DNA of 64,000 nucleotides, from NCBI RefSeq assembly GCF_021869535.1, contig NW_026262604.1:1488001-1552000 (forward strand), in the 5' to 3' direction. This document shows positions 22,479 to 50,545 of this stretch, in pieces. Source of the stretch: Mytilus californianus (Eukaryota). Under the pieces are notes generated by a model, which was not told the origin of the DNA, ran no database searches, and saw only the letters and a program-made list of their open reading frames with translations. Within the stretch, counting starts at the first letter, position 1, and every line of letters begins with the position of its first letter. A program made the translations under genes and the position numbers.

Positions 22479-23210
22479 TGTCAGAATTAGAGTTTCTGTA
22501 TCTTTGGGATCTACGGTCCTCCAACCAGTTTTCAGAATTAGAGTTTCTGTATCTTTGGGATCTACGGTCCTCCAACCTGTTTTCAGAATTAGAGTTTCTG
22601 TATCTTTGGGATCTACGGTCCTCCAACCAGTTGTCAGAATTAGAGTTTCTGTATCTTTGGGATCTACGGTCCTCCAACCAGTTGTCAGAATTAGAGTTTC
22701 TGTATCTTTGGGATCTACGGTCCTCCAACCAGTTGTCAGAATTAGAGTTTCTGTATCTTTGGGATCTACGGTCCTCCAACCAGTTTTCAGAATTAGAGTT
22801 TCTGTATCTTTGGGATCTACGGTCCTCCAACCTGTTTTCAGAATTAGAGTTTCTGTATCTTTGGGATCTACGGTCCTCCAACCTGTTTTCAGAATTAGAG
22901 TTTCTGTATCTTTGGGATCTACGGTCCTCCAACCAGTTGTCAGAATTAGAGTTTCTGTATCTTTGGGATCTACGGTCCTCCAACCAGTTGTCAGAATTAG
23001 AGTTTCTGTATCTTTGGGATCTACGGTCCTCCAACCAGTTTTCAGAATTAGAGTTTCTGTATCTTTGGGATCTACGGTCCTCCAACCTGTTTTCAGAATT
23101 AGAGTTTCTGTATCTTTGGGATCTACGGTCCTCCAACCTGTTTTCAGAATTAGAGTTTCTGTATCTTTGGGATCTACGGTCCTCCAACCAGTTGTCAGAA
23201 TTAGAGTTTC
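22479..23210 (-). repeat. Tandem array of 14 x 51-bp units made of the LTR U5 end + PBS + leader
   Basis: Unit AGAAACTCTAATTCTGA(C/A)AAC(T/A)GGTTGGAGGACCGTAGATCCCAAAGATAC matches 23686-23732. The array ends exactly at TGACA (22479). Confidence 0.92.
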
Positions 23211-23269
23211 GGTGTATTTGCTTGGAATTGGTCTTATACCAATGGGATCTATACCTTGACGACTTGTGA

Positions 23270-23645
23270 TGTCTTTAATCGATGTTAACGATACTTTATA
23301 CTTATTGTCCAAGACATTAAACCATTCCCTGGCTATGCCTGTCAGGTGGAACGGGAGAATCAAGATGGCTGACACCTCAGGCATGCCCTGTAATGTTACA
23401 AATGCCATAAACATGGCCCAGAATTCTGTGGCATTGCCCCTACCACTAAACGACTCGAAATTCACATGGTATCTGTGACCATGGTTACTAGCAAAACCTG
23501 GTGGTGGTGGTATTATGTGTGGCCCAGTGTTCACAGTGTTAGATGAGGAACCTGCTGTGGCTGTTGGTAATGGGGCTGTGTTGACTATCTCTTCCGGTTG
23601 TTCATTGTCTGTGGCATTAGTGGTAGCATTATTTGGTGCAGGCAT
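23270..23645 (-). pseudogene. gag: Ty3/Gypsy gag N-terminal fragment
   Basis: MPAPNN...FESFSGRGNATEFWAMFMAFVTLQG...ILPFHLTGIAREWFNVL...SLTSIKD is a capsid-like motif. It begins ~70 nt after the LTR end/PBS and is truncated by a jump back into U5. Confidence 0.8.
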
Positions 23646-23713
23646 ATTGATGTTCTTTGATCTCAACCAGTACATACGTTAATTCTTTGGGATCTTTCAG
23701 TCCTCCAACCAGT

Positions 23714-25608
23714 TGTCAGAATTAGAGTTTCTGTGTGTTTGCTTGGAATTGGTCTTATACCAATGGGATCTATACCTTGACGACTTGTGATGTCTGGAGC
23801 CAAGGCCTGAAACAATATTCAATAAAACTTGAAATAGTTTTATGTCTTTATTTCCAAAGAGCGCATGTAAAAGTCTAATTATAATAGCAGTTATAATATA
23901 AAATGACAAACAATATTCATAAGTATAAATCAATATAATAATGCAAGTATAATTCCATTAGATAATGCAATAGACCTATCATAATTAAATATTTCATAAA
24001 TATTCTGAAACATGAACATAATGTGTATCGCAATACTTAATGTATGAGCAACATCTCATTTCTTTTGCATAAATATTCTAAACATTCAAATATAAACATG
24101 GTAGAGCATTTTTAAGGTATTTGGTTAAACTTTATTCTAAACACTGAGAATTAAATAAAGGAATAATATAAACGTCTTTCTTATGAAACTCCAATTCAAA
24201 CAATGAGGTTACTTATCTAACCATATCTCCGTTAAGGGGGAATAACTCTTTTTTTAATCTGTTAAGGAGGAATAACTCTTTTTTAATCTGTTAAGGGGTA
24301 ATAACTCTTTACACAATAAAAAAAAGGGGGGGGGGGGCAATTGTAGAATAGAAACTTTTCTATCATGAAATCTTGTTACGCAATGAAATATATATAATAC
24401 TTTGTTGTGGGGAACTAGCTATAGAATATGTCTTACATGTATACTTGCTAAAAATAAGTTTACGCAATAACGTGCTATTTATAGAAAAATAACAAACCAT
24501 GCGTTTGCTGACAATAACATGTCAAATAAACTGCACATCAAGAAATCATGCCTAAAAGGCTTTCGAATTATAAAACCTTACCATTGAAAACATTATAACT
24601 TCAATGCAATAGTGAATTTAAGGTGAATTATTATTTCTTATTTCTTGTCAGTGCGACAAAACAGGCGGATGTTATAAATAACTATAAAAACATAAAATAA
24701 GTATACCATTTTCCGATCAGAACCAAAAACTTTTCTTTAAAAAACACATTATTTACAACTATTTACAATTATAGCATAAAGAAAATATCTTGATAATTAA
24801 CTTCTTTATAAAGATAATAAAAGATGAAAACTCTTATTAAATAAAATAACTATGAAAGTGCTGAAGATTTTACAAAAGGAAAATAAACCTATTTCTATTC
24901 AAAAAGAATAAAGCATTAGCAAATTAATAATTTTATCAGAAGTTACTTTTAGGTTATGAAAACCTTTAAACAAAATGCTTAAGATTATATTTAACAAAAT
25001 AAAATTAACTTTGCTTACCTGAAACAATATTCAATAAAACTTGAAATAGTTTTATGTCTTTATTTCCAAAGAGCGCATGTAAAAGTGGCGCTTTTTGGAA
25101 ATAACTTTTTAGATTCGAATTTGTGGACTGTTTCAGGTTTGTCCAATCAAAATTAACATTTAATCAAAAACCATGACAACTTTAGTCTAATTGACAGAAA
25201 ATGGGTAGGGTCATAAGTGACGCTTAAGACTAAAAAATATCTTAATTACTTATGTAATCCCGCTATCAATGTTTACTCTATACCCTATTTGAGCCGGATA
25301 TTAACAATAGAAACAATCCGAAAAAAACCTTATTACATGTCGGCTTCACTTTAAAAATCATATCTGTCAACACATTCTGACCATTGTCCGATATCTTCTT
25401 ACGTAATCTATATACAACACAATAAGGCTTACTAAAAGGAAATATGTTTGTGTGAAAATCAAAACTAAAGCTATTAAAATGTCTGTCCAGAATTGAAATA
25501 AAATGTTTAACTAAAATAATTTGCTTTAAACTTAGAACTTTTCCAATTTTTACTGAAATTAAGAATTTCACAAAAATAATAAAATCTGTTCAAAATGATA
25601 CCATGACA
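23714..25608 (-). mobile_element. Long terminal repeat (LTR1, 1895 bp) of the env-bearing Gypsy element
   Basis: Termini TGTCA...TGACA. Preceded by a PPT (AAGTAAGGGGGAG, ~25610-25622) and followed by AC-TGGTTGGAGG (PBS-like) and gag. Confidence 0.85.
25080..25155 (-). promoter_or_regulatory. Putative LTR core promoter (ATTGG/CCAAT box, conserved AACCTGAAACAGT, Inr-like CCACTTT with +1 at 25086)
   Basis: The same motif order and spacing occur at 17945-18015 in the divergent LTR. The TSS is inferred, not observed. Confidence 0.55.
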
Positions 25609-26084
25609 ACTCCCCCTTACTTCAGTTGATTTCGACCCGAAATCTTGACATATTCCTGTAAAATACTAAGTAAAGTAGGGGTTAGTCAATTACACATACA
25701 TGATAACTGTGTATTGTTCCATACATACAAAAGTAAACATACAAAATATATATACATACCTAAATATTCAATAATTGATCATAAACACAGGTCCTGAGTT
25801 ACAAGGTCTTTAATTCAAAACAATAAATGCATCTAACTATTTCTGAAAAAAGTTGTCTAAAAAAATACCTTATCACTTAAAACAATTTGGAAAATATTCA
25901 AGAGGTTGAGGATTCAGCACTACTTATGGAATAGAACTAATTATTCGGTGAAATGAAATATATTAGACAAAAATTACTGCAGAAATACAGTTTAATTTAA
26001 GATGTTAAAATTCATTATTAAAATCTAATAGTTGAACAATTAAAAAGAAATCATAAGAACAATTTGCTTTTAAAATAAAATTGA

Positions 26085-28274
26085 TTATTCTAAATGTGGA
26101 AATAAGGAAACAGAAGTTTGATTTGAAGCTTGTTGCACTTTTTGAATAGTTCGTGGTGGATTCAAAACTGAAGCAAACCCTTGATGTGTAACTAATACAT
26201 AAGAATCAAATGTCTGAGCTAATATTTTGTTAATTCTATGCCTTTTAAATACATTAAGATCAATTGTAGTAGGAATGTTCACAGTCTTGTTGGTAAGCTT
26301 GTTTGTAATAACAAATGATGAAATAATAACATATAATTTACTCTGATGAAAGGATGAAATTGATATATCATCTACAGAAGGTATACTGTCGTAATATGAT
26401 GGACACACAGATAAGCTAAGCAATGGTACTGTAACACAGTCAGCACCTGATGTAATCTCTAAGTAAATGGTGGTGCATTTGGACTTTCTTGATCGATACA
26501 AAAAACAAATCAGTACAGATAAAAATATGAATACAATTACACTCAAAATCACTGAGGCATGTAGCCAAGAAAATTGAGAAGCAAAAAATGTCTCTAGTTC
26601 TGATGCACTTGTAGTAGGTGGTGTGAGTTTCTTATATATAAATGATGGTATTTCTTGAGATTTTACTTTTGAGACTTGTTGTATGATGTGGAGGATAATT
26701 GCTTATCACTAAAATATTCTTGCAACAATGCTAAATTTACAGGATATTGAACTGACACTTCTTGTGTGTTGTTGTAACATTGGACTAATCTTGGTGATAA
26801 ATATAATGATTTTGTGGAAAGTGAACACTTGCATGGTAAACTGACAACACAATCTTTGCATCCTGGAAGGAGATTTTGCTTGTTGTGACAATTAATAGCA
26901 AGCTTATCACTTTGATACACCAATACTGATGTGGAGCTCAATTCAATGATGTCATGTGTTAAATGATTTTCCAAAAATCTGAAATTGCACAGGCTTTTGA
27001 CCTGCTTCTTGTCATTGTTGAATAGTGCAATGGTGCATTGTTTAACATGCGATGGGACAAGTGCAATATTGAAACTGCATGTGATAACACTTACATGCTG
27101 GCAATTAGTTAATTGGTTAGAAGATAAGGGGAGATAATAATCATGCTGGTGGGTAAGAGCAAGAAAATCTGGTAAATCAAGCAGTTTAGTTGCATGCTTC
27201 AGAGTGTTATTTACTGGAACAGGTAGAGAAATTACTTTAAAAAGCTGAAGAGGTTGTGAATGTGATGAAACTGGAAATCTGAGTGTTAGGTATAGGATGG
27301 AGTGGTTACGCATAAACATAAAGTTACGGTTAGTATAGTAGAAGGAAGGATGTAACTGTGTTAGATAGAATCCTGGATACGATTTTGTTGATATTCCTTG
27401 AACCTTATGGAGTGCATGTGTTAGGGTTTGTTTTAGCAATAATAGTGGTGAGACTCTGCCCATGACAAGGCTTTGCACTGCGGCTTGGAACTGGTCCAAA
27501 TTTCTTCGTAATATATTGCCTGTATTAGTGAGGTTAATGAGTATTTGGAAAATATTAAACATGGATTGCTGTAAGGTAACTAATGACAAGTTCATTGAAT
27601 GAGCCAATGTGGCTATCTCTTTTGAATTGATTTGAATTCCAGACATCAGATTGGTTGTCCTATTGTCCATTACTGACATATAGGATGATAAGTGGTCACC
27701 ATGCTGGTGTAGAACGTCAGATAATAATTCAGTTCTCTTATTGAGTGCGTTTATGTGTCTAGCAAGTAAATTTACATCACTCATTGTTGATGTACCAAAA
27801 AGACCTTTAGCAAGTGAGCCAATGAATGGTAAAAATGAACGAATATTTCGTTTTGATGACAAAATAGTACTGTGAGGAATTAAAGTATGAATGGCTTTAA
27901 TTGTATCTAATAAGTGCATTTCTGTAGTTTTATGTAAATAACTTATAAAATTTACATTGCGTTAAATGTATTACAATCATGAACATGTGTTTGTCTCTGA
28001 CATAAAGGTAACTCTTCTGATAAATGAATGTTATGGGGAATTTGAACCTTAAATGTATGAAGCCATGATTCTTTGGCTAAAACAGGTTTGCCTCTTCTTT
28101 AAAGATGACCCCATAATTAATTATTTGGATTATGTCTTTTTCTACAGTATAATCAGCACCAACTTGAACAAAACACAGGACCACCATTAGAAAGTACATC
28201 AGCCCATGCCAACTAGCCACGAATTTACCTACAAATATATTAAACAAGGGAAAAATTAGATGTGATGAAATCAA
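26085..28274 (-). pseudogene. env: Envelope-like (class I, baculovirus-F/errantivirus-type) glycoprotein ORF, frameshifted
   Basis: Hydrophobic signal (LMYFLMVVLCFVQVGA), NYGVIF, basic cleavage site KRNIR|S followed by fusion-peptide-like SFLPFIGSLAKGLFGT, heptad region and Cys-rich ectodomain. TM segment VILSVIVFIFLSVLICFLY then RSRK. Breaks near 28077, 27950 and 26660. Lies between integrase and the PPT. Confidence 0.8.
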
Positions 28275-28688
28275 GGTGAAAGTATGCAGGCCTTACATAC
28301 AATCTAGCACTATGGATCAACAGAGAATCTGTTTAGGTTTAATTCAACACATCAAATTTCTACCTTACAAAAAAAAAATAAAACCTAAAAGTCTGCCGGC
28401 ATGGCTAGCTAGTTAGCAGTGAATTGAATAATACTGTCAATGGGACTATCCTTCGATGTCAAGTAACTTGGAACTGATAATACATTTTACTGAGTACTGG
28501 AACTGAGTACGGACTTTAAGATAATGAGTACTAATGAGTTCACTTATTGATGAGTACTAACTTGTACGATTACATACTTGTGCAATATAAAGTGATATGA
28601 ACTAAAATCTCAAATCATTAAACTTAATTTGAATGATAAAAAACTTGTCTTAAATAACGCATGAATACTACATGTACTATGAGCAAAA

Positions 28689-30790
28689 CTAGTTTTTTAC
28701 TCTTTTGAAGAAAGATTTCTTTCTTTTGCCTTTCTGGGTAAATCTCAGATTTATTTCCTCTAACATGGGAGGGTCAAAACTAGTATCTGGTTCCCATGTG
28801 CGTGTCTTATCAAGCCATTCTACTCTCATGAACCTTTTACCATTGCAAAATTTACCTCTTTTAATTTGATGAAAATTAAATGTTTGATTATCAATACGAG
28901 GCTGATTTGTTTGATTTTCTATAACATTTTCTTGATTAACATTATTTTCAGGTTGTAAGTTAACATTTGGCAGTTCATCAAGAGGTTCTGAATTATCTGC
29001 AGTGTTTTCAGGTTCCTCTTGCACTTGTGTTTGTGCTTGAGGAGCTACATTTGCATTTTGATCTGGTGCATTGTTTTGGTGTTGTTGTACCTCAAACCGT
29101 TTGCGATGAATATTTGGGTCATAGTAGCGCCTAAGATTTGTGGCATTTATCAATGATTTCAATTCTTTATTATTAGATATTTCTTTCAATTTGTATGTGA
29201 AGTTTTGACCTTTTTCCATAATGCGATAAGGACCAGCATGTTTGTCATGTAATTTGCGAGACTGACCTTTAGGGACTTTATTTGTAGTAATCAAAACTTG
29301 GTCTCCAACAGAAAAATCAGGAATATTTGATTTAAGGTCATGTCTTTCTTTATCTTTTTCTTTTTGTTGCGCATCTTTTTGTTTTGCAATTTCATGCGCA
29401 ATTTTTAAATTTGCCAAAAAGCCTTCTATATAATCTTTGACATCTTGACATAAATTGTCTTTTGGTTCTAATGCTACATCAAAAGGAAGTCGCATTTCTT
29501 CTCCAAACATCATATAGAAGGGTGAATATCCTGTTGTATTGCAGGATGGTGATTTTCTATATGCCATCATTATAAAAGGGAGAAGGGTAGGCCAATTTGA
29601 CTGGTCCTTATCACAATATGCTCTTAAACATGCTGCTAATGTGCTATTTTGACGTTCAACAGTACCATTTGTATTTGCATGATATCAACTTGAATGGTGT
29701 TGTTTAACCTAGAAAACTTCACAAATTGCTTTGATAACCTTTGTCATGAACGATTGACCTCTATCACTAAATAAAATTTTAGGACTGCCAAAACGGGCAA
29801 AAACTTCTGAGCATAATATGGTTGCTACCTCTTTTGCTGTTTGTGTTTTCATAGGGAAAGCTTCTGTCCAACGAGTGAAAGAATCAACTACTACTAAGAC
29901 ATGTTCAAAACCTTGTGGTGTTTTTGACAAAGGACCTAGTATATCAACATGCCAACGATGAAATCTACCAACATGAGGCATTGGAGACAAAGGTGGTTTG
30001 TTGGGGTTGTAATTTCTTTTGGCACGTTGACACCTATCGCAAGTTTTTATGTATTGATTTACATTTGCATGCATTTTTGGCCAATAATATTTTTCCATCA
30101 TAGAAGAATAGACCTTATCAGCACCTAAGCGGCCTCCGCCTAGTAAGGAGTCATGATATGAGTGGAGAGCCTCTTCTCTAAGACAAGTTGGCAATGCTAT
30201 CTGTTTAATTTGTCTTAGTTCCTTAGGTAACTTCCTACATCTTCTCTGATATAAATAATATAAAAATACCATTAGAAATAGAGTAATACGGGCTTTCAGA
30301 TACAATTGCACGTCTGAGTTTCTCATCCTCAGGAAGTTCCCTATCTTGCAGATATTTAATGATATCAGAAAAATCAGGACATTGTTTTTGTCTTTCAAAC
30401 AGAGAGATAGGATTAGCTAAGTTTTCAGGAAGTTGATCAGCTTCTAGGGCAGATATTATAGGACAGTTTTCAGGAGATTCATCATCATAGTAAAAGGTAG
30501 TGTAAGTTTGCCAACCATTTGGTAGGCAGTCAGATTCAGAATCTGGCTCAGAATCTTGTCTAGCGTTTGTTACAGATCGTATAGCCGGTGCCTTATCATA
30601 TGGCCTACGGCTTAAACAGTCTGCAACTACATTGCGTTTGCCTGGTCTATGAATGATATCATAGTCTAAGTCTTGTAACTTTAGTGCCCAACGTTCTAGT
30701 CTCCTTGATAATTTGGCAGTTTTTAACCAAGTGAGTGCTCTGTGATCAGTTACTATAGTGAAGTGAGAGTTAGCCAAATAAGGACGGTAG
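28689..30790 (-). pseudogene. pol: Gypsy pol: RNase H C-terminus, tether and integrase
   Basis: HFTIVTDHRALTWL...RWALKLQDLDYDIIHRPGKRNVVADCLSR. Integrase zinc-binding region ...YYWPKM...CDRCQ, core WHVDILGPL...VVVDSFTRW...SDRGQSF, TGYSPF and GPY motif. Several frameshifts. Confidence 0.93.
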
Positions 30791-32939
30791 CACTACAAAA
30801 GTCAAAAAGTCTGAAAAGACCAGTTTTTGTCTGAATTTGCATGAATTTTTACTCGACATTCTTAATTTGTCTGAATAATTTAAAAAAATTCTTGACATAG
30901 TATGAATTTGTCTAATAAGGTTCTTGATTTTTCTTGACAAGTGTCTTGACAGTATGAACATTGTCTTAAAATTTCTCGACACTTCCTGTATCATCTGATA
31001 AGAGTCTGGATTAGTCTCGACCAATTCTTGACTGTCTTAAATTTGTCTCGATCTGTCTTGACATATTCTTGACATTCTTACTAATGTCTGAATATGTCTC
31101 GACATATTCTTGACATTCTAAATAATGTCTGAATATGTCTCAACACATTCTTGACAGTCTTAAAAATGTCTTGACACTATCTCAACAGTATAAATTTCGC
31201 CTGAAATGTGAACAGACTTATTCTGCACTGTTTATGACATTCTATTGCTGTTATATACTCCTTTTTATTATGGCTTAACTAAACTTTGAAGAATCAAGGA
31301 TTAATTTGGTATATATAGTAAGATACCCTTTTGGTGCAACTAAGTTGTAATACCCTGAATAATCCCCCATATAGTTTAATTTTGATTTATTTTTATTAAA
31401 CATTTAAGTAATTGTTTTCACTTGGAATATAAGTAGAAGGTATTGACAAACAGCATTTAGATTTTTGCCGTTCGCAAAACTGCCAGTCAAATTTGCTTTA
31501 CTAAAATAGGTGTCTTGTATCTCTTTTGGACCCCACAATTCATCTTTTGGGTTTGTGTAGCTAAAAAAAGAGGGGGGGGGGGGGTGGGGGTGGGGGTGGG
31601 GCTTTCGTTTAGGTCAAAGAATTTGTTCCCATCTTGATTCAAAAACCTTATTCATTTTTTAGAACAACCCAAAAACATTTTTTATTCAAATTTGAGTGTT
31701 GAATTTTATAATTTTTTATCAAAAATAAATATTAATAAATAATAAAAAAACTCCTTCCTGAAAAGAAAAAAATGTTTAGATCTATATTATGCATGTTTGT
31801 TTGAGAACCATTTCTATAGAAATCATTGATGGGACCCATTATAAATACATTTTTTTTATTATTCCTGGAGTAGATAATAATTTTCTCTTAATCTTTGGGA
31901 ATTATTCAATTTGTTTTTATGTTAAAATAATTAACTTCATAATTTTGATGAGGAATATCCATTTCAATTCAATTTGTTTTCATCAAAATGATGATTTTCA
32001 TTTTCATCTATCAACAAACTTTTGTAGTGGCATGGTCGGTCAACTGATAAGTTGTATGGCTGATTACAGGTAAAGTTATAACTTCTATTTGACAGTTGCG
32101 TGTACTCTGGGGTGTGGAATACCTTAATTTTATGGGGAACATCCTGTCCATGTGTAATACTTGATATATTCCAACAGATGACATTACACAAATTTTTCTT
32201 CTGTTAAATGAATGATTTGTATATCATCATAATTTGCTATTTATATAAACCACATTTTTGTATAATAATTATTTACCATATCAACATTGAATATTATGAA
32301 TGTAGAATGAAATATGTCTACAGTATAATTGGTTTGAATCATTTAATTTATAAGATTTAGGAATCAAAATTTGTAATTATTTAAAAACCCACATTGAAAT
32401 TGTTTTATATCAACACAACCACATTTGAATTATTTTATACTTTAGATTTCATAGCCATATTTGCATTTGTAAAAATATTTATATACCCAAATTTTTAATT
32501 ATTTTACATGCCCAACTTTTATTTTTGTTGTAAAGAAGTGTAACTTGAAACAACAGTATATCATATAAAGAGAAATAAAGATTAAAGTTATATCATGAAT
32601 ATTGGTCATGATTTGTAAAACTCAGAACTGTCAAGTAAATTTAAGACACGATTCAAAATGTTCAGAATATGTCAAGCCATACTGAGAAAAAATATGAATG
32701 TCGAGAATATGTCGAGAAATTTCAAGACAGTTTTCAAATGTCAAGAATTTGTCAAGAAATTTTAAGACCATATTCAGAATGTCGAGAATATGTCGAGTAA
32801 ATTTCATACAAATTTAATATAAATGAGAATTTGTCAAGAAAAATTAAGACACAAGTCATACTTTTGGAGAATGTCGAGTAAAAGTTCATGCAAATTAAGA
32901 CAAAAACTGGTCTTTTCAGACTTTTAGACTTCTGTAGTG
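30791..32939. mobile_element. Non-autonomous CACTA (CMC-EnSpm) element inserted in RNase H
   Basis: Termini CACTACA...TGTAGTG with ~70-bp imperfect TIRs. 3-bp TSD TAG (30788-30790, 32940-32942). Many CTTGACA/CTCGACA subterminal repeats, inverted between the two ends. Excision restores ...GVESYRPYLANSHF. Confidence 0.92.
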
Positions 32940-34295
32940 TAGGATTCAACGCCTCTAATTATGGCTAAACACTCTTTTTCAGAAGTATAGTACTTTTTCT
33001 CAGCATCACTCAGCGCTTTACCACCATAAGCGACAACATACTCTCTATTTTGATCATCTTTCTGTCCCAAAACATAGCCTATTGCTTGATCATATGCATC
33101 ACAAGTTAAAATAAAAGACCTATTTGGATCTGGGTAAGATAGAATTGGTGAAGAAAGTAAAGCCTTTTTCATTGTTTCAAATGCTTGTTGACATTTAGGA
33201 GTCCAGTTAAAAGGTGCATTTTTGCGCAGCAATGCTGTCAAAGGAGACACAATATCTGAATGACCTTTAATAAAACGACGGTAGTAGTTAGCCATACCTA
33301 AAAAAATCTGACCTGTTTAACTGTTTTTGGAACAGGGAACTCACTAACTGCACTCGTTTTTTCTAAGTCAACCTGAACTCCATTTTTGGAAATGATGTGG
33401 CCTAAAAATTTGACTTGCTTAACGGCAAAATTACATTTTGTTGGCTGTAGACGTAAATTTGCCTGTTTTAACCTATCAAAAACTTGAGTAAGGTGTTCAA
33501 GATGTTCTTCAAAAGTATTGCTGAATATTAAGATGTCATCTATGTAGACTAACAAAAATTTCCAATTTAAACCTCTAAATATTTGAGTCATGAGACATTG
33601 AAAAGAAGTGGCTGCATTCATTAAGCCATAACTAAGGCGATTCCATTCATAAGCAACAGATTGTGTGACAAATGCACTTTTATGTTTTGTCTCTTCATCA
33701 AGTGGAATTTGCCAAAACGAACTTTTAAGGTCTAAATTTGTAAGGTAAAGAGGTTTTGCTTCTCCTAATGTGTCAAAAACACTTTCAATATGGGGTAAAG
33801 GAAAGTTCATAGGTACTGTGACCTTGTTGACCTTGCGATAATCTATCGCTAGGCGCCATGTACCTGTATTTTTCTTAGGAATCATTACTACTGGTGACAA
33901 CCAATCAGAATTAGACTCCTCTATAATATTATGTTTCAATAAATCTTGAATTTGGCTTTCCATTTCCCTTTTAACTTGAGGCGACTTTCTATAAAAATGT
34001 TGTTTTACAGGTCGTGCACCAGGGACAGATACAATTTTGTGTTTGTATACGTCTGTTTCACCTAATTCTGTTAAATTTGTGGCAAAGCTTGTTCTGTTTT
34101 CTTTCAAAAATGATTTTAACTTTGCTTTCTCTATTTCTGTTAAGTCAGATTGTGTTAAATCAAATTCTAGGTCAGATTCTGAGACTTTACTTGGTGTGTT
34201 TACTGATGAAACAGATGGAGAGCTTTCATCAAAGTTCTGTATGAGCTCAGTATTGACTTTTTCTACTTTTGCATTTTCTTGTGTGCTCTTAACCT
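32940..34295 (-). pseudogene. pol: Gypsy pol: reverse transcriptase and RNase H N-terminus
   Basis: WLSPVVMIPKK...WRLAIDYRKVN, LDLKSSFWQIPL, YGLMNA, YIDDILIFS, FLGHIIS. RNase H part [18 protein letters not shown]...SEKECLAI. Frameshift near 33297. Confidence 0.95.
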
Positions 34296-35279
34296 TAAAA
34301 TTGAGAATGGAAATGGGGAATTTGTCAAAGAGACAACAACCCGACAATAGAGCAGACAACAGCCGAAGGCCACCAATGGGTCTTCAATGCAGCGAGAAAA
34401 TCCCGCACCCGGAGGCGTCCTTCAGCTAGCCCCTAAACAAATATGTATACTAGTTCAGTGATAATGGACGTCATACTAAACTCCAAATTATACACAAGAA
34501 ACTAAAATTAAAAATGATACAAGACTAACAAAGGCCAGAGGCTCCTGACTTGGGACAGGCGCAAAAATGCGGCGGGGTTAAACATGTTTTTTGAGATCTC
34601 AACCCTCCCTCTATACCTCTAGCCAATGTAGAAAAAACAAACGCACAACAGTACGCACAGTAAAACTGAGTTTAAGAGAAGTCCGAGTCCGATGTCAGAA
34701 TAGGAAACAAAAGAACATAAACAAAATGACAATACATAAATAACAACAGACTACTAGCAGTTACTGACATGCCACCTCCAGACCTCAATTAAACTGATTG
34801 AAAGATTAGGTCTTCATCATATGAACATCAGGCACAATCCCTCCTGTTAGGGGTTTAGTATTATACCATCATAAAATATATGAGAAGAACATAACCCGTG
34901 TAATGCCAACAACTGGTTTTAGAATAAATATGTTTAATTCCGATGCAAAGACCCTATAAGTGAATCAATATTAAAGCTAAAATATGCAATCTTTAATGAC
35001 CTGACAACAGTATCGTAACTATATCCCTTCTTAATAAGTCTGTTTAAAGGTTTTGTTAGCTTTTGAGGTGAATACTGACATTTTTGTGCTTTGTAAAGAA
35101 TATCACCATACAAGCTTGGATGTGAAATACTCGAACGTATAAGATGTCTGCATGTTGAGTTGTATTTACGAATGATGTCCTTATACCGATGATAAAATTT
35201 AGTAAATGTTTTGATTAGTTTATGATATCGAAAACCCTTGTGTAATAATTTTTCAGTAATACATAAATTTCTCTCGCTA
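34296..35279 (-). mobile_element. ~980-bp interspersed repeat (SINE-like) inserted into pol between protease and RT
   Basis: Contains the CTCCTGACTTGGGACAGGC...GCGGGGTTAAACATG core of the abundant family. The pol sequence resumes on both sides (DKNVR...RAHK/AKVEKVN). Possible imperfect TSD AAGATT/AAGGTT. Confidence 0.75.
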
Positions 35280-35745
35280 AAATCTTACATTTTTGTCAGT
35301 TGGGTTAAGTAAACTTATATATGCTTTACCATTTTTAACAGTAACCAATGACTTTGCTGCTATTATGTTTAGATGCTCTATATTTGGAAGTGGCTCTAAA
35401 AGTACAGTTGAACCTGGTTGTTGATGTGAAACAGAGACACTAATTAAAGTTTGAGAAAATTTTGGTATTGTTACTGCCTTAAGAGTTCTTACTAAACCTT
35501 CACTTATACTAAGTTTACTTATTGTAGTAACTGTGTGATTTTCTACAATTTCTAAAGTATTGTTGTCAAAATTTAATTTTGCTTTGTTGTTTTTCAAAAA
35601 ATCAACACCTAGTATTAAAGAGTGGTGTAATGGTGGTAAAACATGTACTACAGTTTTGAATTTTCGATCTCCTATTTTAATTAGAATGTCTAATTTACCC
35701 AAAACTTTAACATGTTCACCATTAACAGCTATTACTTTAACATCT
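35277..35745 (-). pseudogene. pol: Gypsy aspartic protease, C-terminal half
   Basis: VKVIAVNGEHVKVLGKLDI...HSLILGVDFLKNNKAKLNFDNNTL. The catalytic DTG, gag and 5' LTR are absent (truncated at ~35745). Confidence 0.85.
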
Positions 35746-35747
35746 TA

Positions 35748-36823
35748 CACAAGTTATGAAAATATTCAAAGTCAATGAACCATGACTGAGTTACATGGCT
35801 AAACAATCTCCATGTAAATGAGATGTGGCAATGCTTATACAACTGCATACCAAATACCATCATGACCATTGACTTATCATAAGTTGTTCCCAAATCTAAA
35901 TACAAACATTAACTAGTAAACTATAGAAAAGTTTCAAAGTCAATAAGAGGGGGTGGGGCTATATAATCTCCATGGAAACGATACTTGCAAATGCCAATAA
36001 ATTTGCATACCAAATATCATTGACTTAACATTAGCAGTTCATCTTAAACTGATCTAATCACAAACTAATACATGTAAACTAAGATAAGTTTCAAAGTCAT
36101 TAGACTGTGACTGAGGGGTGAGGCCAAATATTCTCCATGGAAATGAGATGTGCCAATGCTTATACAACTGAATACCAATTAACATTGGCCTACCACTAAT
36201 GGTTCCCCTTGAATTGACCTAATCACAAACTAAAACATGATAACTCAGAAAAATTTTCAAAGTCAATAGACCATGTCTTAGGGGCGGAGCCAAATTATTT
36301 TCATGGAAATGAGATATGCCGATGCTTACACAACTACATACCAAATATCATTGATCTACCACTTGTGGTTCCCCATAAACTGACCTTAATCACAAACTAA
36401 TACATGTAAAATAAGCAAAAGTTTCAAAGTCAATAGACCATGACTAAGGGGACGGAGCTAAATTATCTCCATGGAAATGAGGTATGCCGATGCTTACACA
36501 ACTGCATACCAAATATCATTGACCTACCACTTGTGGTTCCCCATAAACTGACCTAATCACAAACTAATACATGTAAAATAAGCAAAATTTTCGAAGTCAA
36601 TAGACCATGACTGAGGGGCAAGGCCATATTATCTCCATTGAAATAAGATGTGCCAATGCTTATACAACTGCATACTAAATATGATTGACCTACCAATTGT
36701 GGTTCACCATAAACTAGACCTAATCACAAACTAATACATTGTTGACGCCGCCGTCGCCGCCGCCGACGCCGGAAACAGCATACCTATGTCTCGCTTTTTG
36801 ACTCAGTCAAGGCGAGACAAAAA
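35748..36823 (-). mobile_element. Second Helentron/HINE-like element (3'-truncated) with ~167-bp tandem repeats
   Basis: 5' TTTTTGTCTCGCCTTGACTGAGTCAAAAAGCGAGACA palindrome and (CGG)n microsatellite. About 6 repeats, marker CAAAGTCA at 35767, 35935, 36092, 36258, 36425, 36592. Confidence 0.75.
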
Positions 36824-39800
36824 TGCTTCTTTTTGGCCCCTTATTCCTACATGTTCAGGGAAATTAATCCCAAACTCAATCCAAGCCTTCCCATTGTTAT
36901 ATGAAACCTTGTGGTACAATGTCAGAGAGATCCATACAGTTACACACAAGTTATTGTTAACATTGTGATGTACTAGATGTTGAGTTTCATTTCTTTTTTA
37001 AATGTAAAAAAAAGGAACAATTAAGAAAAGAATTTTTAAATGAAAATAAATATTATAACTTAAAATGATATAGATAAATTAAAACATATTTTCAATCCTG
37101 AAACAAAACAGGACACTTACAAATTAGGCTCCTTTATAAAAAAGTCACTAAGACTGAGGGCAGGGAGTCCTTGATATAATTTGAATCTCTAATATATATA
37201 TATATATTGATTTAAAGAAAGACAAGAATTATAGTTCAAAGTATCTGCATTGTTTATTGTCATTGTTTATATGTAAACTGTATATCATGTATAATGTTTT
37301 AATCCATTGTCCCATTATGGGCGTAAAAGTGATTTTCAATAAAGTTTATAGTTTAAAGTTAATTTTTATTTTTTTTAATTCTTACTATATATTTAGCAAT
37401 AGAGAAGTCAGACTCCAGCCTCTGTAATTGGGCCTCTTTACGTTCAAGTTCCCTATGAATTTCCTCTGTGTTCAGACTCAGTCTTTAGATCTCTTCTTCC
37501 CTTGACATCAGCTGGAAATACAAAAGATAGGTTTAGCTAAACAGTCATTTAAGAATAAATGGGTAAAAATATGGATGAGATATTTTGTATAAAGCGATCT
37601 GCTACAGTCCCTTCATGACGCCAAATGATAAGAAATGCTCAATAAGCCCTTCGGGATGGTGAGCTAAAAAAAAATTACAGCTTATCATCTCAAGACAATC
37701 ATCATTTCTTAATACATAATTTTCAAGCATTTTGTTATCAGTAAATTAAAAGCAAACTAAATATTACTAGTATGTTATATACATATACACATTCATGGAT
37801 CTACAATCTGTCGATACCTGTATCTTGGCATTGCACAAGGTCATGTTTTTCTCCGACTGTTTATGACGTCTTTACACTAAATCCAGTGGATGTTGGATGT
37901 GTACGGATTGATAATTTAGTCTTAGCTGCATGATTTTTTTATTAGTTGTTAGTGGCTTTGAACTAGCTGTCAGTTAACTGCGAGTACTCTCAGATCGGTT
38001 CAGTGTCTTTTTGTTGTTGGGATGTACAAGTACCCGGCCTCGTCCACTTGTATTTTTGTTCATCTGATCAGTTAAGCCTTTTTCAACTGATTTTTATAGG
38101 AATCGTTCTTATGTTGTATTGTTATACCACTGTCCCAAGTTAGGGGAGGGTTGGGATCCCGCTAACATGTTTAACCCCGCCACATTATGTATGTATGTGC
38201 CTGTCCAAAGTCAGGAGCCTGTAATTCAGTGGTTGTCGCTTGTTTATGGGTTACATATTAGTTTTTCGTTCATTTATTTAAATAAATAAGGCCATTAGTT
38301 TTCTCGTTTGAATTGTTTAACATTGTCATTTCGGGGCCTTTTATAACTGACTATGTGGTATGGGCTTTGCTCATTTTTGAAGGCCGTTAGTTACCTATAG
38401 ATGTTAATTTCTGTGTCATTTTGGTCTCTTGTGGAGAGTTGTCTCATTTGCAATCATACCACATCTTCTTTTATATAAGTAAGGTAATCAAACATATCTA
38501 TAAAAGTTTTCTTTAAATGGAATTGGAGAACCTCCCTTACACTGCTTTTAAATTGTCTAAATTGTCCTTTAACCAGAAAAAAACCCTTGTTTCCCCCTTT
38601 TTTTGCCCCTATTGGCTAAATGTTGTGAGCCATAACCCCCATAACCCATCCTTGTGTAGTATGCAAACTTGTGGTATAATTTCAGAGAGTCATTTATACA
38701 CTTATTGTCTGTAAACAAGAAAAATGCTTCTTTTTGGTCCCTTATTCCTACATGTTCAGGGAAATTAATCCCAAACTCAATCCAAGCCTTCCCATTGTTA
38801 TATGAAACCTTGTGGTACAATGTCAGAGAGATCCATACAGTTACACACAAGTTATTGTTAACATTGTGATGTACTAGATAATGAGTTTCATTTCTTTTTT
38901 AAATGTAAAATAAATGAACAATTAAGAAAAGAATTTTTAAATGAAAATAAATATAATAACTTAAAATGATATAGATCAATTAAAACATATTTTCAATCCT
39001 GAAACAAAACAGGACACTTACAAATTAGGCTCCTTTGTAAAAGTTACTAAGACTGAGGGCAGGGAGTCCTTGATATAATTTGGATCTCTTATATATATAT
39101 TGACTTAAAGAAAGACAAGAATTATAGTTCAAAGTGTCTGCATTGTTTATTGTCATTGTTTATATGTAAACTGTATATCATGTATAATGTTTTAATCCAT
39201 TGGCCCATATGGGCGTAAAGTGATTTTCAATAAAGTTTTAAGTTTAAAGTTAATTTTAATATTTTTTTAATTCTTACTATATCTTCAGACTTTCTTCTTT
39301 AGCAATAGAGAAGTCGGACTCCAGCCTCTGTAATTGGGCCTCTTTATGTTCAAGTTCCCTATGAATTTCCTCTTGTGTTCAGACTCAGTCTTTGGATTTC
39401 TTCTTCCCTTGACATGAGCTGGAAATACAAAAGATAGGTTTAGCTAAACAGTCATTTAAGAATAAATGGGTAAAAATATGGATGAGACATTTTGTATAAA
39501 GCGATCTGCTACAGTCCCTTCATGACGCCAAGTGATGAGAAATGCTCAATTGGCCCTTTGGGATGGTGAGCTAAAAAAAATTACAGCTTATCATCTCAAG
39601 ACAATCATCATTTCTTAATACATAATTTTCAAGCATTTTGTTATCAGTAAATTAAAAGCAAACTAAATATTACTAGTATGTTATATACATATACACATTC
39701 ATGGATCTACAATCTGTCGATACCTGTATCTTGGCATTGCACAAGGTCATGTATTTCTCCGACTGTTTATGACGTCTTTACACTAAATCCAGTGGATGTT

Positions 39801-42800
39801 GGATGTGTACGGATTGATAATTTAGTCTGAGCTGCATGATTTTTTTTATTAGTTAGTGGCTTTGAACTAGCTGTCAGTTAACTGCGAGTACTCTCAGATC
39901 GGTTCAGTGTCTTTTTTTTTGTTGGGATGTACAAGTACCCGGCCTCGTCCACTTGTATTTTTGTTCATCTGATGAGTTAAGCCTTTTTCAACTGATTTTT
40001 TATAGGAATCGTTCTTATGTTGTATTGTTATACCACTGTTCCAGGTTAGGGGAGGGTTGGGATCCCGCTAACATGTTTAACCCCGCCACATTATGTATGT
40101 ATGTGCCTGTCCCAAGTCAGGAGCCTGTAATTCAGTGGTTGTCGCTTGTTTATGGGTTACATATTAGTTTTTCGTTCATTTATTTAAATAAATAAGGCCA
40201 TTAGTTTTCTCGTTTGAATTGTTTAACATTGTCATTTCGGGGCCTTTTATAGCTGACTATGTGGTATGGGCTTTGCTCATTTTTGAAGGCCGTTAGTTAC
40301 CTAAAGATGTTAATTTCTGTGTCATTTTGGTCTCTTGTGGAGAGTTGTCTCATTTGCAATCATACCACATCTTCTTTTATATAAGTAAGGTAATCAAACA
40401 TATCTATAAAAGTTTTCTTTAAATGGAATTGGAGAACCTCCCTTACACTGCTTTTACATTGTCTAAATTGTCCTTTAACCAGAAAAACCCTTGTTTTTCC
40501 CCTTTTTTTGCCCCTATTGGCTAAATGTTGTGAGCCATAACCCCCATAACCCATCCTTGTGTAGTATGCAAACTTGTGGTATAATTTCAGAGAGTCATTT
40601 ATACACTTATTGTCTGTAAACAAGAAAAATGCTTCTTTTTGGTCCCTTATTCCTACATGTTCAGGGAAATTAATCCCAAACTCAATCCAAGCCTTCCCAT
40701 TGTTATATGAAACCTTGTGGTACAATGTCAGAGAGATCCATACAGTTACACACAAGTTATTGTTAACATTGTGATGTACTAGATAATGAGTTTCATTTCT
40801 TTTTTAAATGTAAAATAAATGAACAATTAAGAAAAGAATTTTTAAATGAAAATAAATATAATAACTTAAAATGATATAGATCAATTAAAACATATTTTCA
40901 ATCCTGAAACAAAACAGGACACTTACAAATTAGGCTCCTTTGTAAAAGTTACTAAGACTGAGGGCAGGGAGTCCTTGATATAATTTGGATCTCTTATATA
41001 TATATTGACTTAAAGAAAGACAAGAATTATAGTTCAAAGTGTCTGCATTGTTTATTGTCATTGTTTATATGTAAACTGTATATCATGTATAATGTTTTAA
41101 TCCATTGGCCCATATGGGCGTAAAGTGATTTTCAATAAAGTTTTAAGTTTAAAGTTAATTTTAATATTTTTTTAATTCTTACTATATCTTCAGACTTTCT
41201 TCTTTAGCAATAGAGAAGTCGGACTCCAGCCTCTGTAATTGGGCCTCTTTATGTTCAAGTTCCCTATGAATTTCCTCTTGTGTTCAGACTCAGTCTTTGG
41301 ATTTCTTCTTCCCTTGACATGAGCTGGAAATACAAAAGATAGGTTTAGCTAAACAGTCATTTAAGAATAAATGGGTAAAAATATGGATGAGACATTTTGT
41401 ATAAAGCGATCTGCTACAGTCCCTTCATGACGCCAAGTGATGAGAAATGCTCAATTGGCCCTTTGGGATGGTGAGCTAAAAAAAATTACAGCTTATCATC
41501 TCAAGACAATCATCATTTCTTAATACATAATTTTCAAGCATTTTGTTATCAGTAAATTAAAAGCAAACTAAATATTACTAGTATGTTATATACATATACA
41601 CATTCATGGATCTACAATCTGTCGATACCTGTATCTTGGCATTGCACAAGGTCATGTATTTCTCCGACTGTTTATGACGTCTTTACACTAAATCCAGTGG
41701 ATGTTGGATGTGTACGGATTGATAATTTAGTCTGAGCTGCATGATTTTTTTTATTAGTTAGTGGCTTTGAACTAGCTGTCAGTTAACTGCGAGTACTCTC
41801 AGATCGGTTCAGTGTCTTTTTTTTTGTTGGGATGTACAAGTACCCGGCCTCGTCCACTTGTATTTTTGTTCATCTGATGAGTTAAGCCTTTTTCAACTGA
41901 TTTTTTATAGGAATCGTTCTTATGTTGTATTGTTATACCACTGTTCCAGGTTAGGGGAGGGTTGGGATCCCGCTAACATGTTTAACCCCGCCACATTATG
42001 TATGTATGTGCCTGTCCCAAGTCAGGAGCCTGTAATTCAGTGGTTGTCGCTTGTTTATGGGTTACATATTAGTTTTTCGTTCATTTATTTAAATAAATAA
42101 GGCCATTAGTTTTCTCGTTTGAATTGTTTAACATTGTCATTTCGGGGCCTTTTATAGCTGACTATGTGGTATGGGCTTTGCTCATTTTTGAAGGCCGTTA
42201 GTTACCTAAAGATGTTAATTTCTGTGTCATTTTGGTCTCTTGTGGAGAGTTGTCTCATTTGCAATCATACCACATCTTCTTTTATATAAGTAAGGTAATC
42301 AAACATATCTATAAAAGTTTTCTTTAAATGGAATTGGAGAACCTCCCTTACACTGCTTTTACATTGTCTAAATTGTCCTTTAACCAGAAAAACCCTTGTT
42401 TTTCCCCTTTTTTTGCCCCTATTGGCTAAATGTTGTGAGCCATAACCCCCATAACCCATCCTTGTGTAGTATGCAAACTTGTGGTATAATTTCAGAGAGT
42501 CATTTATACACTTATTGTCTGTAAACAAGAAAAATGCTTCTTTTTGGTCCCTCATTCCTACATGTTCAGGGAAATTAATCCCAAACTCAATCCAAGCCTT
42601 CCCATTGTTATATGAAACCTTGTGGTACAATGTCAGAGAGATCCATACAGTTACACACAAGTTATTGTTAACATTGTGATGTACTAGATGATGAGTTTCA
42701 TTTCTTTTTTAAATGTAAAATAAATGAACAATTAAGAAAAGAATTTTTAAATGAAAATAAATATAATAACTCAAAATGATAAGATAAATTAAAACATATT

Positions 42801-45800
42801 TTCAATCCTGAAACAAAACAGGACACTTACAAATTAGGCTCCTTTTTAAAAGTCACTAAGACTGAGGGCAGGGAGTCCTTGATATAATTTGGATCTCTTA
42901 TATATATATTGACTTCAAGAAAAACAAGAATTATAGTTCAAAGTGTCTGCATTGTTTGTTGCCATTGTTTATATGTAAACCGTATAACATGTATAATGTT
43001 TTAATCCATTGGCCCATATGGGCGTAAAGTGATTTTCAATAAAGTTTTAAGTTTAAAGTTAATTTTAATATTTTTTATATCTTACTATATCTTCAGACTT
43101 TCTTCTTTCTTCTTTAGCAATAGAGAAGTCAGACTCCAGCCTCTGTTATTGGGCCTCTTTATGTTCAAGTTCCCTATGAATCTCCTCTGTGTTCAGACTC
43201 AGTCTTTGGATCTCTTCTTCCCTTGACATCAGCTGGAAATACAAAAGATAGGTTTAGCTAAACAGTCATCTAAGAATAAATGGGTAAAAATATGGATGAG
43301 ATATTTTGTATAAAGCGATCTGCTACAGTCCCTTCATGACGCCAAGTGATAAGAAATGCTCAATTGGCCCTTCGGGATGGTGAGCTAAAAAAAATTACAG
43401 CTTATCATCTCAAGACAATCATCATTTCTTAATACATAATTTTCAAGCATTTTGTTATCAGTAAATTAAAAGCAAACTAAATATTACTAGTATGTTATAT
43501 ACATATACACATTCAAGGATCTACAATCTGTCGATACCTGTATCTTGGCATTGCACAAGGTCATGTTTTTCTCCGACTGTTTCTGACGTCTTTACACTAA
43601 ATCCAGTGGATGTTGGATGTGTACGGATTGATAATTTAGTCTTAGCTGCATGATTTTTTTATTAGTTGTTAGTGGCTTTGAACTAGCTGTCAGTTAACTG
43701 CGAGTACTCTCAGATCTGTTCAGTGTCTTTTTGTTGTTTGGATGTACAAGTACCCGGCCTCGTCCACTTGTATTTTTGTTCATCTGATGAGTTAAGCCTT
43801 TTTCAACTGATTTTTATAGGAATCGTTCTTATGTTGTATTGTTATACCACTGTCCCAGGTTAGGGGAGGGTTGGGATCCCGCTAACATGTTTAACCCCGC
43901 CACATTATGTATGTATGTGCCTGTCCAAAGTCAGGAGCCTGTAATTCAGTGGTTGTCGCTTGTTTATGGGTTACATATTAGTTTTTCGTTCATTTATTTA
44001 AATAAATAAGGCCATTAGTTTTCTCGTTTGAATTGTTTAACATTGTCATTTCGGGGCCTTTTATAGCTGACTATGTGGTATGGGCTTTGCTCATTTTTGA
44101 AGGCCGTTAGTTACCTATAGATGTTAATTTCTGTGTCATTTTGGTCTCTTGTGGAGAGTTGTCTCATTTGCAATCATACCACATCTTCTTTTATATAAGT
44201 AAGGTAATCAAACATATCTATAAAAGTTTTCTTTAAATGGAATTGGAGAACCTCCCTTACACTGCTTTTAAATTGTCTAAATTGTCCTTTAACCAGAAAA
44301 ACCCTTGTTTTCCCCCTTTTTTTGCCCCTATTGGCTAAATGTTGTGAGCCATAACCCCCATAACCCATCCTTGTGTAGTATGCAAACTTGTGGTATAATT
44401 TCAGAGAGTCATTTATACACTTATTGTCTGTAAACAAGAAAAATGCTTCTTTTTGGTCCCTTATTCCTACATGTTCAGGGAAATTAATCCCAAACTCAAT
44501 CCAAGCCTTCCCATTGTTATATGAAACCTTGTGGTACAATGTCAGAGAGATCCATACAGTTACACACAAGTTATTGTTAACATTGTGATGTACTAGATAA
44601 TGAGTTTCATTTCTTTTTTAAATGTAAAATAAATGAACAATTAAGAAAAGAATTTTTAAATGAAAATAAATATAATAACTTAAAATGATATAGATCAATT
44701 AAAACATATTTTCAATCCTGAAACAAAACAGGACACTTACAAATTAGGCTCCTTTGTAAAAGTTACTAAGACTGAGGGCAGGGAGTCCTTGATATAATTT
44801 GGATCTCTTATATATATATTGACTTAAAGAAAGACAAGAATTATAGTTCAAAGTGTCTGCATTGTTTATTGTCATTGTTTATATGTAAACTGTATATCAT
44901 GTATAATGTTTTAATCCATTGGCCCATATGGGCGTAAAGTGATTTTCAATAAAGTTTTAAGTTTAAAGTTAATTTTAATATTTTTTTAATTCTTACTATA
45001 TCTTCAGACTTTCTTCTTTAGCAATAGAGAAGTCGGACTCCAGCCTCTGTAATTGGGCCTCTTTATGTTCAAGTTCCCTATGAATTTCCTCTTGTGTTCA
45101 GACTCAGTCTTTGGATTTCTTCTTCCCTTGACATGAGCTGGAAATACAAAAGATAGGTTTAGCTAAACAGTCATTTAAGAATAAATGGGTAAAAATATGG
45201 ATGAGACATTTTGTATAAAGCGATCTGCTACAGTCCCTTCATGACGCCAAGTGATGAGAAATGCTCAATTGGCCCTTTGGGATGGTGAGCTAAAAAAAAT
45301 TACAGCTTATCATCTCAAGACAATCATCATTTCTTAATACATAATTTTCAAGCATTTTGTTATCAGTAAATTAAAAGCAAACTAAATATTACTAGTATGT
45401 TATATACATATACACATTCATGGATCTACAATCTGTCGATACCTGTATCTTGGCATTGCACAAGGTCATGTATTTCTCCGACTGTTTATGACGTCTTTAC
45501 ACTAAATCCAGTGGATGTTGGATGTGTACGGATTGATAATTTAGTCTGAGCTGCATGATTTTTTTATTAGTTAGTGGCTTTGAACTAGCTGTCAGTTAAC
45601 TGCGAGTACTCTCAGATCGGTTCAGTGTCTTTTTTTTGTTGGGATGTACAAGTACCCGGCCTCGTCCACTTGTATTTTTGTTCATCTGATGAGTTAAGCC
45701 TTTTTCAACTGATTTTTTATAGGAATCGTTCTTATGTTGTATTGTTATACCACTGTTCCAGGTTAGGGGAGGGTTGGGATCCCGCTAACATGTTTAACCC

Positions 45801-48800: not shown

Positions 48801-50545
48801 ATTCTTACTATATCTTCAGACTTTCTTCTTTAGCAATAGAGAAGTCGGACTCCAGCCTCTGTAATTGGGCCTCTTTATGTTCAAGTTCCCTATGAATTTC
48901 CTCTTGTGTTCAGACTCAGTCTTTGGATTTCTTCTTCCCTTGACATGAGCTGGAAATACAAAAGATAGGTTTAGCTAAACAGTCATTTAAGAATAAATGG
49001 GTAAAAATATGGATGAGACATTTTGTATAAAGCGATCTGCTACAGTCCCTTCATGACGCCAAGTGATGAGAAATGCTCAATTGGCCCTTTGGGATGGTGA
49101 GCTAAAAAAAATTACAGCTTATCATCTCAAGACAATCATCATTTCTTAATACATAATTTTCAAGCATTTTGTTATCAGTAAATTAAAAGCAAACTAAATA
49201 TTACTAGTATGTTATATACATATACACATTCATGGATCTACAATCTGTCGATACCTGTATCTTGGCATTGCACAAGGTCATGTATTTCTCCGACTGTTTA
49301 TGACGTCTTTACACTAAATCCAGTGGATGTTGGATGTGTACGGATTGATAATTTAGTCTGAGCTGCATGATTTTTTTATTAGTTAGTGGCTTTGAACTAG
49401 CTGTCAGTTAACTGCGAGTACTCTCAGATCGGTTCAGTGTCTTTTTTTTGTTGGGATGTACAAGTACCCGGCCTCGTCCACTTGTATTTTTGTTCATCTG
49501 ATGAGTTAAGCCTTTTTCAACTGATTTTTTATAGGAATCGTTCTTATGTTGTATTGTTATACCACTGTTCCAGGTTAGGGGAGGGTTGGGATCCCGCTAA
49601 CATGTTTAACCCCGCCACATTATGTATGTATGTGCCTGTCCCAAGTCAGGAGCCTGTAATTCAGTGGTTGTCGCTTGTTTATGGGTTACATATTAGTTTT
49701 TCGTTCATTTATTTAAATAAATAAGGCCATTAGTTTTCTCGTTTGAATTGTTTAACATTGTCATTTCGGGGCCTTTTATAGCTGACTATGTGGTATGGGC
49801 TTTGCTCATTTTTGAAGGCCGTTAGTTACCTAAAGATGTTAATTTCTGTGTCATTTTGGTCTCTTGTGGAGAGTTGTCTCATTTGCAATCATACCACATC
49901 TTCTTTTATATAAGTAAGGTAATCAAACATATCTATAAAAGTTTTCTTTAAATGGAATTGGAGAACCTCCCTTACACTGCTTTTACATTGTCTAAATTGT
50001 CCTTTAACCAGAAAAACCCTTGTTTTCCCCCTTTTTTTGCCCCTATTGGCTAAATGTTGTGAGCCATAACCCCCATAACCCATCCTTGTGTAGTATGCAA
50101 ACTTGTGGTATAATTTCAGAGAGTCATTTATACACTTATTGTCTGTAAACAAGAAAAATGCTTCTTTTTGGTCCCTCATTCCTACATGTTCAGGGAAATT
50201 AATCCCAAACTCAATCCAAGCCTTCCCATTGTTAAATGAAACCGTGTGGTACAATGTCAGAGAGATCCATACAGTTACACACAAGTTATTGTTAACATTG
50301 TGATGTTCTAGATGATGAGTTTCATTTCTTTTTTAAATGTAAAATAAATGAACAATTAAGAAAATAATTTTTAAATGAAAATAAATATAATAACTTAAAA
50401 TGATATAGATAAATTAAAACATATTTTCAATCCTGAAACAAAACAGGACACTTACAAATTAAGGTCCTTTTTAAAAGTCACTAAGACTGAGGGCAGGGAG
50501 TCCTTGGTATAATTTGGATCTCTTAATATATATATATATATATAC
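36819..50545. repeat. Tandem array of ~1.9-kb units (~7.2 copies) with a 3.8-kb higher-order dimer
   Basis: An identical short ORF ends at 36968, 38869, 40774, 42679, 44588, 46491, 48400 and 50303 (periods 1901-1909). Two unit variants alternate with period 3812 from 42.5 kb. Confidence 0.97.
43086..43232 (-). pseudogene. Captured 147-nt coiled-coil exon (representative copy; present in each full array unit)
   Basis: TTTTGTATTTCCAG|LMSREEEIQRLSLNTEEIHRELEHKEAQ*QRLESDFSIAKEERRKSEDI|GTAAG. Every copy has a stop or indel. Confidence 0.7.

Follow-up and report, generated by a model that had tools for sequence, protein, structure and literature searches.

Gypsy elements that carry an F-type env gene (env-F) occur across animals, and the catalog of such elements includes a chromodomain-containing clade in Mollusca, Annelida, and Cnidaria along with five elements from Mytilus (Chary and Hayashi, PMC13524379). 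Spliced transcripts of long terminal repeats (LTRs) have been described for maize LTR retrotransposons and claimed as the first evidence of LTR introns (bioRxiv 10.64898/2026.05.08.723830), and for complex insertions, template switching between co-packaged RNAs has been proposed (PMC1950507). Here we analyze a 64,000-nt stretch of Mytilus californianus DNA (assembly GCF_021869535.1, contig NW_026262604.1, positions 1,488,001 to 1,552,000; "the window" below, numbered from its first nucleotide), which contains a dead, decayed copy of a Ty3/gypsy element with an F-type env gene. The env-bearing element itself is already known as a type, as an earlier note made from the sequence alone had recognized: such elements have been catalogued in bivalves including Mytilus (PMC13524379). 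Two traits of the family were not found in print, namely a likely self-renewing LTR intron and a predicted matrix-like tail of the Env protein. Taken as a whole, the locus is likely to represent a decayed copy of a recently mobile, chromodomain-containing Ty3/gypsy element with an F-type env, the LTR intron of which is likely rebuilt in each cycle.

The duplicated R and the LTR intron

The long LTR of the window element (1895 nt, TGTCA...TGACA; 23714..25608, on the minus strand, as are all element features given below) contains two identical 68-nt segments, R1 and R2, 1212 nt apart. R1 (25019..25086) starts at an initiator-like CCACTTT and contains AATAAA, after which comes the donor GTAAGC of a GT...AG intron (23807..25018) with an inner donor at 24581; R2 (23807..23874) is identical to R1, is preceded by a G, and its terminal AG serves as an acceptor in splicing. 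Past R2, exon-like sequence extends to the LTR end. The spacer was considered as a second U3, a candidate that is ruled out by the absence of any similarity to U3. The earlier note had described this LTR as spliced; it is instead the long, intron-containing form. The note was right to single out the LTR as the unusual part, although not its combination with env: env-less members of the same clade carry duplicated R as well, which rules out a tie between the two.

Across the family, the repeats are near-identical and 54-74 nt long, with copy 1 ending in AG followed directly by GT and copy 2 ending in AG. The same layout, with differing sequences, was found in 13 divergent families: 10 env-bearing (F1-F9 and L229) and two env-less ones in the genome G000, and one metagenome contig, L184, with an env that is 30% identical. 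The repeat pair was present in 10 of the 20 stretches screened, including L060 and L063, and, among 15 metagenome and IMG-VR loci, most of which stop shortly behind env, only in L184. In an RNase H-integrase tree, all own-genome cases form one clade (SH-aLRT 98), in which L229, too, has an env, and none of the 15 own-genome gypsy rows outside the clade has the pair; the tree was built by a quick method from 45 rows, with L228 left out, and covers the loci of the present analysis only. Family F1 is represented by 16 full long LTRs and 8 short LTRs that skip the spacer exactly, and short forms are also found in families F2 and F4. Two env-less gypsy families (L194, L196, and L230; L203, L212, L227, and L228) lie inside the env-bearing clade and retain the duplicated-R LTR, which suggests that env was lost.

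Several features of the repeats point to active rebuilding of the pair: exact edges, concerted change of R1 and R2, the G before R2, and an acceptor at the R2 end that is used in RNA. R1 and R2 are 97-100% identical within one LTR, compared to 46-75% between 8 families. The identity stops exactly at the donor, and its start coincides with an initiator-like (T/G)CA site or lies at most 3 nt from one; in 4 of 12 families, a TATA box is found about 30 nt upstream. In each of the 12 families, and also in L229, copy 1 is followed by a donor-like GT(A/G/T)AG or GTATG. Among 31 long LTRs from 4 families, 7 sites vary between lineages yet are common to R1 and R2, whereas changes confined to R2 are private to single LTRs; further concerted sites were detected in the pairs L194/L230 and L203/L227, and in the provirus L082/L084 both LTRs have a variant that is present in R1 and absent from R2, the state predicted for an intermediate. 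Of the 19 family-by-boundary forms, 11 have a G directly before R2, against a background of 13% (binomial P 5e-6; 0.01 at 30% background), and the offsets of this extra G shift within a single family. Reverse transcriptase copying the cap would leave an extra base; we found no usable source in the literature on a cap-derived extra G. At the RNA level, a GT..AG joint from 24581 to 23807 is represented by 3 reads with 3 starts and by one contig, so the acceptor at the end of R2 is used, as expected of a spliceosomal intron, and the reads are mostly sense, if the library has the usual stranding.

These observations make it likely that the LTR intron is self-renewing. In the proposed cycle, transcription would start at R1, and splicing of the 5' end, with the donor at the end of R1 and the acceptor at the end of R2, would remove about 28 upstream ATGs before gag. 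In the 3' LTR, the RNA would read through R1, the poly(A) signal of which would be suppressed by the neighboring donor, as in HIV and foamy viruses, and would be cut and polyadenylated inside R2; because this cut would precede the acceptor, the 3' copy of the intron would be unspliceable. Strong-stop DNA, consisting of exon 2 and R1 and often carrying a cap-derived extra base, would jump to R2 and copy the intron, R1, and U3, yielding a new LTR of the form U3-R1-intron-(fresh R1 copy)-exon 2. Short LTRs might arise by a jump onto R1 or by deletion between the repeats. Two observations weigh against this cycle: AATAAA is absent from R in 3 of the 12 families, and the G before R2 is absent in 8 of the 19 boundary forms. 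The RNA evidence on the R1 donor, a start at R1, and poly(A) in R2 comprises 51 reads, with no ends called.

Alternatively, the packaged RNA could be unspliced, with a long R spanning R1 to R2, the intron serving the mRNA only and selection, along with occasional gene conversion, maintaining the similarity of the repeats. The intron is indeed covered by RNA reads, R in family F1 is more conserved between copies than its flanks (1.0-1.2% vs 3.5%), and identical LTRs within one provirus are expected under either model; this account nevertheless leaves unexplained why, in 13 families, the identity has its edges precisely at the initiator and the donor, why R2 is preceded by an extra G whose offset shifts, and why 7 sites are concerted, and we consider it improbable. 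That the two repeats arose by template slippage, as a partial LTR duplication without a role in splicing, and that the short LTRs are plain recombination products, is very hard to reconcile with the donor-like motif after copy 1 in 12 of 12 families and L229, the acceptor used in RNA, and a spacer unlike U3, even if the family does make slippage products (a 51-bp array and a gag/LTR junction, see below) and the short LTRs equal the product of recombination.

Retroelements normally lose introns on copying through RNA. If the intron is renewed through the duplicated R as proposed, an LTR element would have a simple means of splicing its 5' end while still passing the intron on, with the rebuilding recorded in the sequence itself as concerted repeats and an extra G at their start; the model predicts exact RNA ends.

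The Env protein and its predicted matrix-like tail

In the window copy, env consists of an N-terminus with a hydrophobic signal-like stretch (KD 2.0) and an F2-like part, interrupted by frame breaks (27933..28292), an RxxR site with a fusion-peptide-like segment (RNIR, then SFLPFIGSLAKGLFGT; 27791..27850), an F1-like ectodomain with heptads and a Cys-rich region (26684..27961), terminating at a 322-bp deletion at 26683/26684, and a second transmembrane (TM) helix followed by a conserved beta domain of about 110 aa with a predicted matrix-like fold (26151..26585). The features of Env that the earlier note had listed are all seen, apart from its single TM helix, which holds for the damaged window copy, where the deletion removed the first helix, and not for the family: among 77 env relatives, TM1 is present in 75 and TM2 in 77, so one TM is ruled out as the family state. 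All 77 also have a domain of at least 90 residues past TM2, and [RK]xxR precedes the fusion peptide in 74.

The structure of Env was modeled from a natural 808-residue frame aligned with 76 relatives (mean pLDDT 78.9). The best match of the model in PDB is RSV F (E 4.8e-11), supporting the class I fusion fold, and its matches in BFVD include glycoproteins of chu-related viruses, baculovirus F, and a protein of an abalone herpesvirus. Of the 6 env proteins scanned, 2, translated from unbroken natural frames of other copies, matched Baculo_F above the cut-off; neither the env pieces of the window nor the tail domain gave a Pfam match. Weak heptad matches of the env profile to coronavirus spikes among PDB sequences (best E 0.0008) were rejected as coiled-coil similarity. 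Gypsy pol lies upstream of env in 9 of the 10 sampled loci. Neither of the outcomes that the earlier note had named as refuting its reading, a repaired ORF with no class I fusion fold or an env not consistently linked to this pol, was observed, and its classification is supported. Thus, the hallmarks of env-F errantiviruses in the sense of PMC13524379 (env behind pol, signal, furin site, fusion peptide, and class I F fold) are all present, and the chromodomain that characterizes the mollusc, annelid, and cnidarian clade is found via relatives (5 of 6).

Acidic residues precede both TM helices, and basic residues directly follow them (in 77 and 66 of the 77 relatives, respectively). Under the positive-inside rule, by which the topology of Env was assigned, basic residues past both helices imply that the chain must re-enter the lumen between TM1 and TM2. 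The intervening stretch contains a hydrophobic core in 61 of 77 relatives and, in 65, a site with a small residue ahead of a conserved PxF motif (a heuristic count), which suggests a putative internal signal peptide. Env would then be a polyprotein that comprises a signal, F2, F1, TM1, the internal signal, a short Ser/Thr-rich ectodomain, TM2, and a cytosolic domain; the latter, with its Mononegavirales-matrix-like fold, may underlie the membrane and connect F with Gag particles during budding.

In a structure search with the tail only, chu-related glycoproteins come out on top in BFVD and BDV-M is the best solved match, and a search of a 1.84-billion library yielded 725 relatives of the tail. 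The tail profile produced no matches among PDB sequences at E≤10, and leads in the ESM Atlas were all under 0.8. On the strength of these models, we lean toward a predicted matrix-like domain behind the second TM helix. Conceivably, Env is instead a cell-bound fusogen or a weakly constrained relic in elements that spread only within cells, and the tail an ordinary beta domain whose likeness to matrix proteins is due to convergence. This appears unlikely, albeit the least so of the alternatives considered here, given the retention of the tail in 77 of 77 relatives at 28-76% overall Env identity and the appearance of the same fold at the top of the list in glycoproteins of chu-related RNA viruses that match the F part of the window-family Env as well. 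The BFVD entry A0A145VUZ2, an uncharacterized abalone herpesvirus protein of 801 residues, aligns with the Env model along 816 columns (E 3e-24); exchange of env between mollusc herpesviruses and elements of the window type is possible.

Should the matrix-like tail be genuine, it would hint at how particles of gypsy elements interact with a fusogen that they have borrowed, and it would point to a hidden matrix protein in the glycoproteins of chu-related viruses, with a bearing on the origin of env. More broadly, and tentatively, with a little less than even confidence, a molluscan endogenous retrovirus clade would retain a 5'-UTR intron by means of a duplicated R and encode, behind F, a TM-tethered homolog of Mononegavirales matrix proteins in common with chu-related viruses, so that an F plus matrix budding module would have been exchanged between retroelements and negative-strand RNA viruses.

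The window element, its family, and its surroundings

From 35735 to 22479, the window element encodes a protease, a reverse transcriptase, an RNase H, and an integrase, the Ty3/gypsy (Metaviridae) order, followed by the env pieces, polypurine tract (PPT), and LTR, in agreement with the order given in the earlier note. The protease region (35281..35735; Pfam E 0.0016, below the cut-off) is truncated upstream of 35735, so the 5' end is gone, and several frame breaks affect pol and env. The reverse transcriptase (33301..34297; YIDD; RVT_1, E 1.8e-37) has a frame break near 33310; RNase H, which also matched in Pfam, as did integrase H2C2/rve and SH3, is split into a 5' part (32940..33316) and a 3' part with a bridge (30238..30790); and the integrase (28692..30416) is in pieces, with a chromodomain-like tail. 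Pfam Chromo was detected behind integrase in 5 of 6 relatives (4 above the cut-off); in the window copy this domain is divergent, and its own integrase tail gave no Chromo match. Two foreign insertions, listed with no strand, split pol: an unclassified retroposon-like fragment (34298..35280), which is repeated elsewhere within the window, and an insertion with CACTA...TAGTG ends, terminal inverted repeats, and a TAG target duplication (30791..32939), which we take to be a CACTA-like DNA transposon. A second element, at 56075-58218, with inverted ends about 2 kb apart, is similar in size to the latter.

The PPT (25610..25622) abuts the LTR, beyond which are a primer-binding-site (PBS)-like TGGTTGGAGGAC (23700..23711) and the 5' part of gag (134 codons; 23275..23675); the full gag of a relative matches Retrotrans_gag (E 1.1e-7). 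The PBS candidate has a TGG motif 2 nt past the LTR and varies among copies; a tRNA pattern search for the window-family PBS gave 24 matches compared to 30 in the control and identified none. Next come a second LTR-end fragment and a PBS of a different sub-lineage, and then an array of 51-bp LTR-end/PBS units (14.3 tandem copies) with the end TGACA (together 22479..23274). The similarity of this second LTR end is 99.2% to one sub-lineage and 86.8% to another. The interval 22479-35735 is a complex insertion with a lost 5' end, and we infer that its LTR/gag/second-LTR structure fits template switching between two co-packaged RNAs. Adjoining the truncated 5' end is a 166-bp tandem repeat (36004-36739; 4.4 copies), and tandem units of about 1.9 kb occupy 36677-50453 (7-8 copies, mostly 97-100% alike).

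The window env piece has at least 98 matches in G000, 19 of which are in stop-free frames of at least 780 codons, and the LTR pairs are at least 99.5% identical in 8 of 10 sampled copies; accordingly, the clade has moved recently. Family copies display TG...CA LTRs, a PPT, and a 4-bp target duplication, as expected of Ty3/gypsy; the duplication was observed at 6 of the 9 two-LTR insertions inspected (C1b, C154b, C132a, C121, L074/L075, and L078/L086) and not at C2, C35, and L076/L080. The named env relatives (142 proteins) come from Mytilus, oysters, clams, scallops, and abalone. As the earlier note had proposed, the family may be infectious.

Several unusual copies deserve mention. The window-family proviruses L031/L032 and L035/L036 have AGT before the 5' LTR and, unlike most inspected copies, lack the 4-bp duplication. 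Non-coding derivatives (LTR, interior of about 2.1 kb, LTR; L074-L080, L086, and L096-L100) occur singly or in tandem, with periods of about 3.94 kb with long LTRs and 2.75 kb with short ones. One copy without pol (L005 / L049-L050; LTRs 99.9% identical) contains a single frame of 976 codons, where a gag-like part continues into env, and several mollusc proteins in databases likewise join Retrotrans_gag and env. A short-LTR env element (L041-L042, L051) is located within a 76-bp satellite, with a second match of near-same env 27 kb away. Two divergent gypsy loci, L209 and L210, carry a long second ORF behind pol (736 and 409 codons) with no match to the window-family env.

Comparison with known systems

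The best BFVD matches of the whole Env model are jingchuviral (chu-related) glycoproteins and the abalone herpesvirus protein A0A145VUZ2. Of the solved structures, that of BDV-M, a Mononegavirales matrix protein like VP40, matches the tail best; this tail is predicted to be TM-tethered and C-terminal to F, whereas the mononegaviral M is a separate soluble gene product encoded upstream of G/F. The insect errantiviruses (gypsy, ZAM), with their baculovirus-F-like env, share with the window family the Baculo_F match and the RxxR site with a fusion peptide, but their LTRs are short, and their Env has one TM and a short tail. Their pol clade is separate according to PMC13524379.

The "ancient" env-F errantiviruses of PMC13524379 are closer, sharing the gag-pol-env order, F-type env with a furin site and fusion peptide, chromodomain, and bivalve hosts. 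In supplement file 2 of that paper, one of the five Mytilus ENV_F elements agrees with the short form of family F4 in LTR length (about 670 nt) and in PBS; the four PBSs listed all differ from that of the window family, and the fifth row lists none. The env ectodomain described there lies between the signal and one TM, in contrast to the two TMs of the window family, and the main text describes no second TM, matrix-like tail, or LTR intron ("matrix," "cytoplasm," and "splic" occur 0 times and "intron" once). Literature listings yielded nothing on a matrix domain in Env or chu-related glycoproteins, and the accessible portions of PMC10886601 and PMC12440569 contain nothing bearing on an LTR intron.

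The complex insertions sharing an LTR that were analyzed by Sabot and Schulman (PMC1950507) have the same arrangement of internal region, LTR, and internal region from two sub-lineages; by contrast, the second unit in the window stops within gag and ends as the 51-bp LTR-end/PBS array. For an LTR intron with duplicated R, the maize preprint (10.64898/2026.05.08.723830) was the sole relevant paper found in a search that did not extend to Repbase reports and subscription papers. The maize transcripts are described as non-coding and LTR-contained, and the part of the preprint consulted mentions neither a duplicated R nor intron regeneration; their LTR introns often include a short middle exon, a pattern that the inner donor of the window LTR fits.
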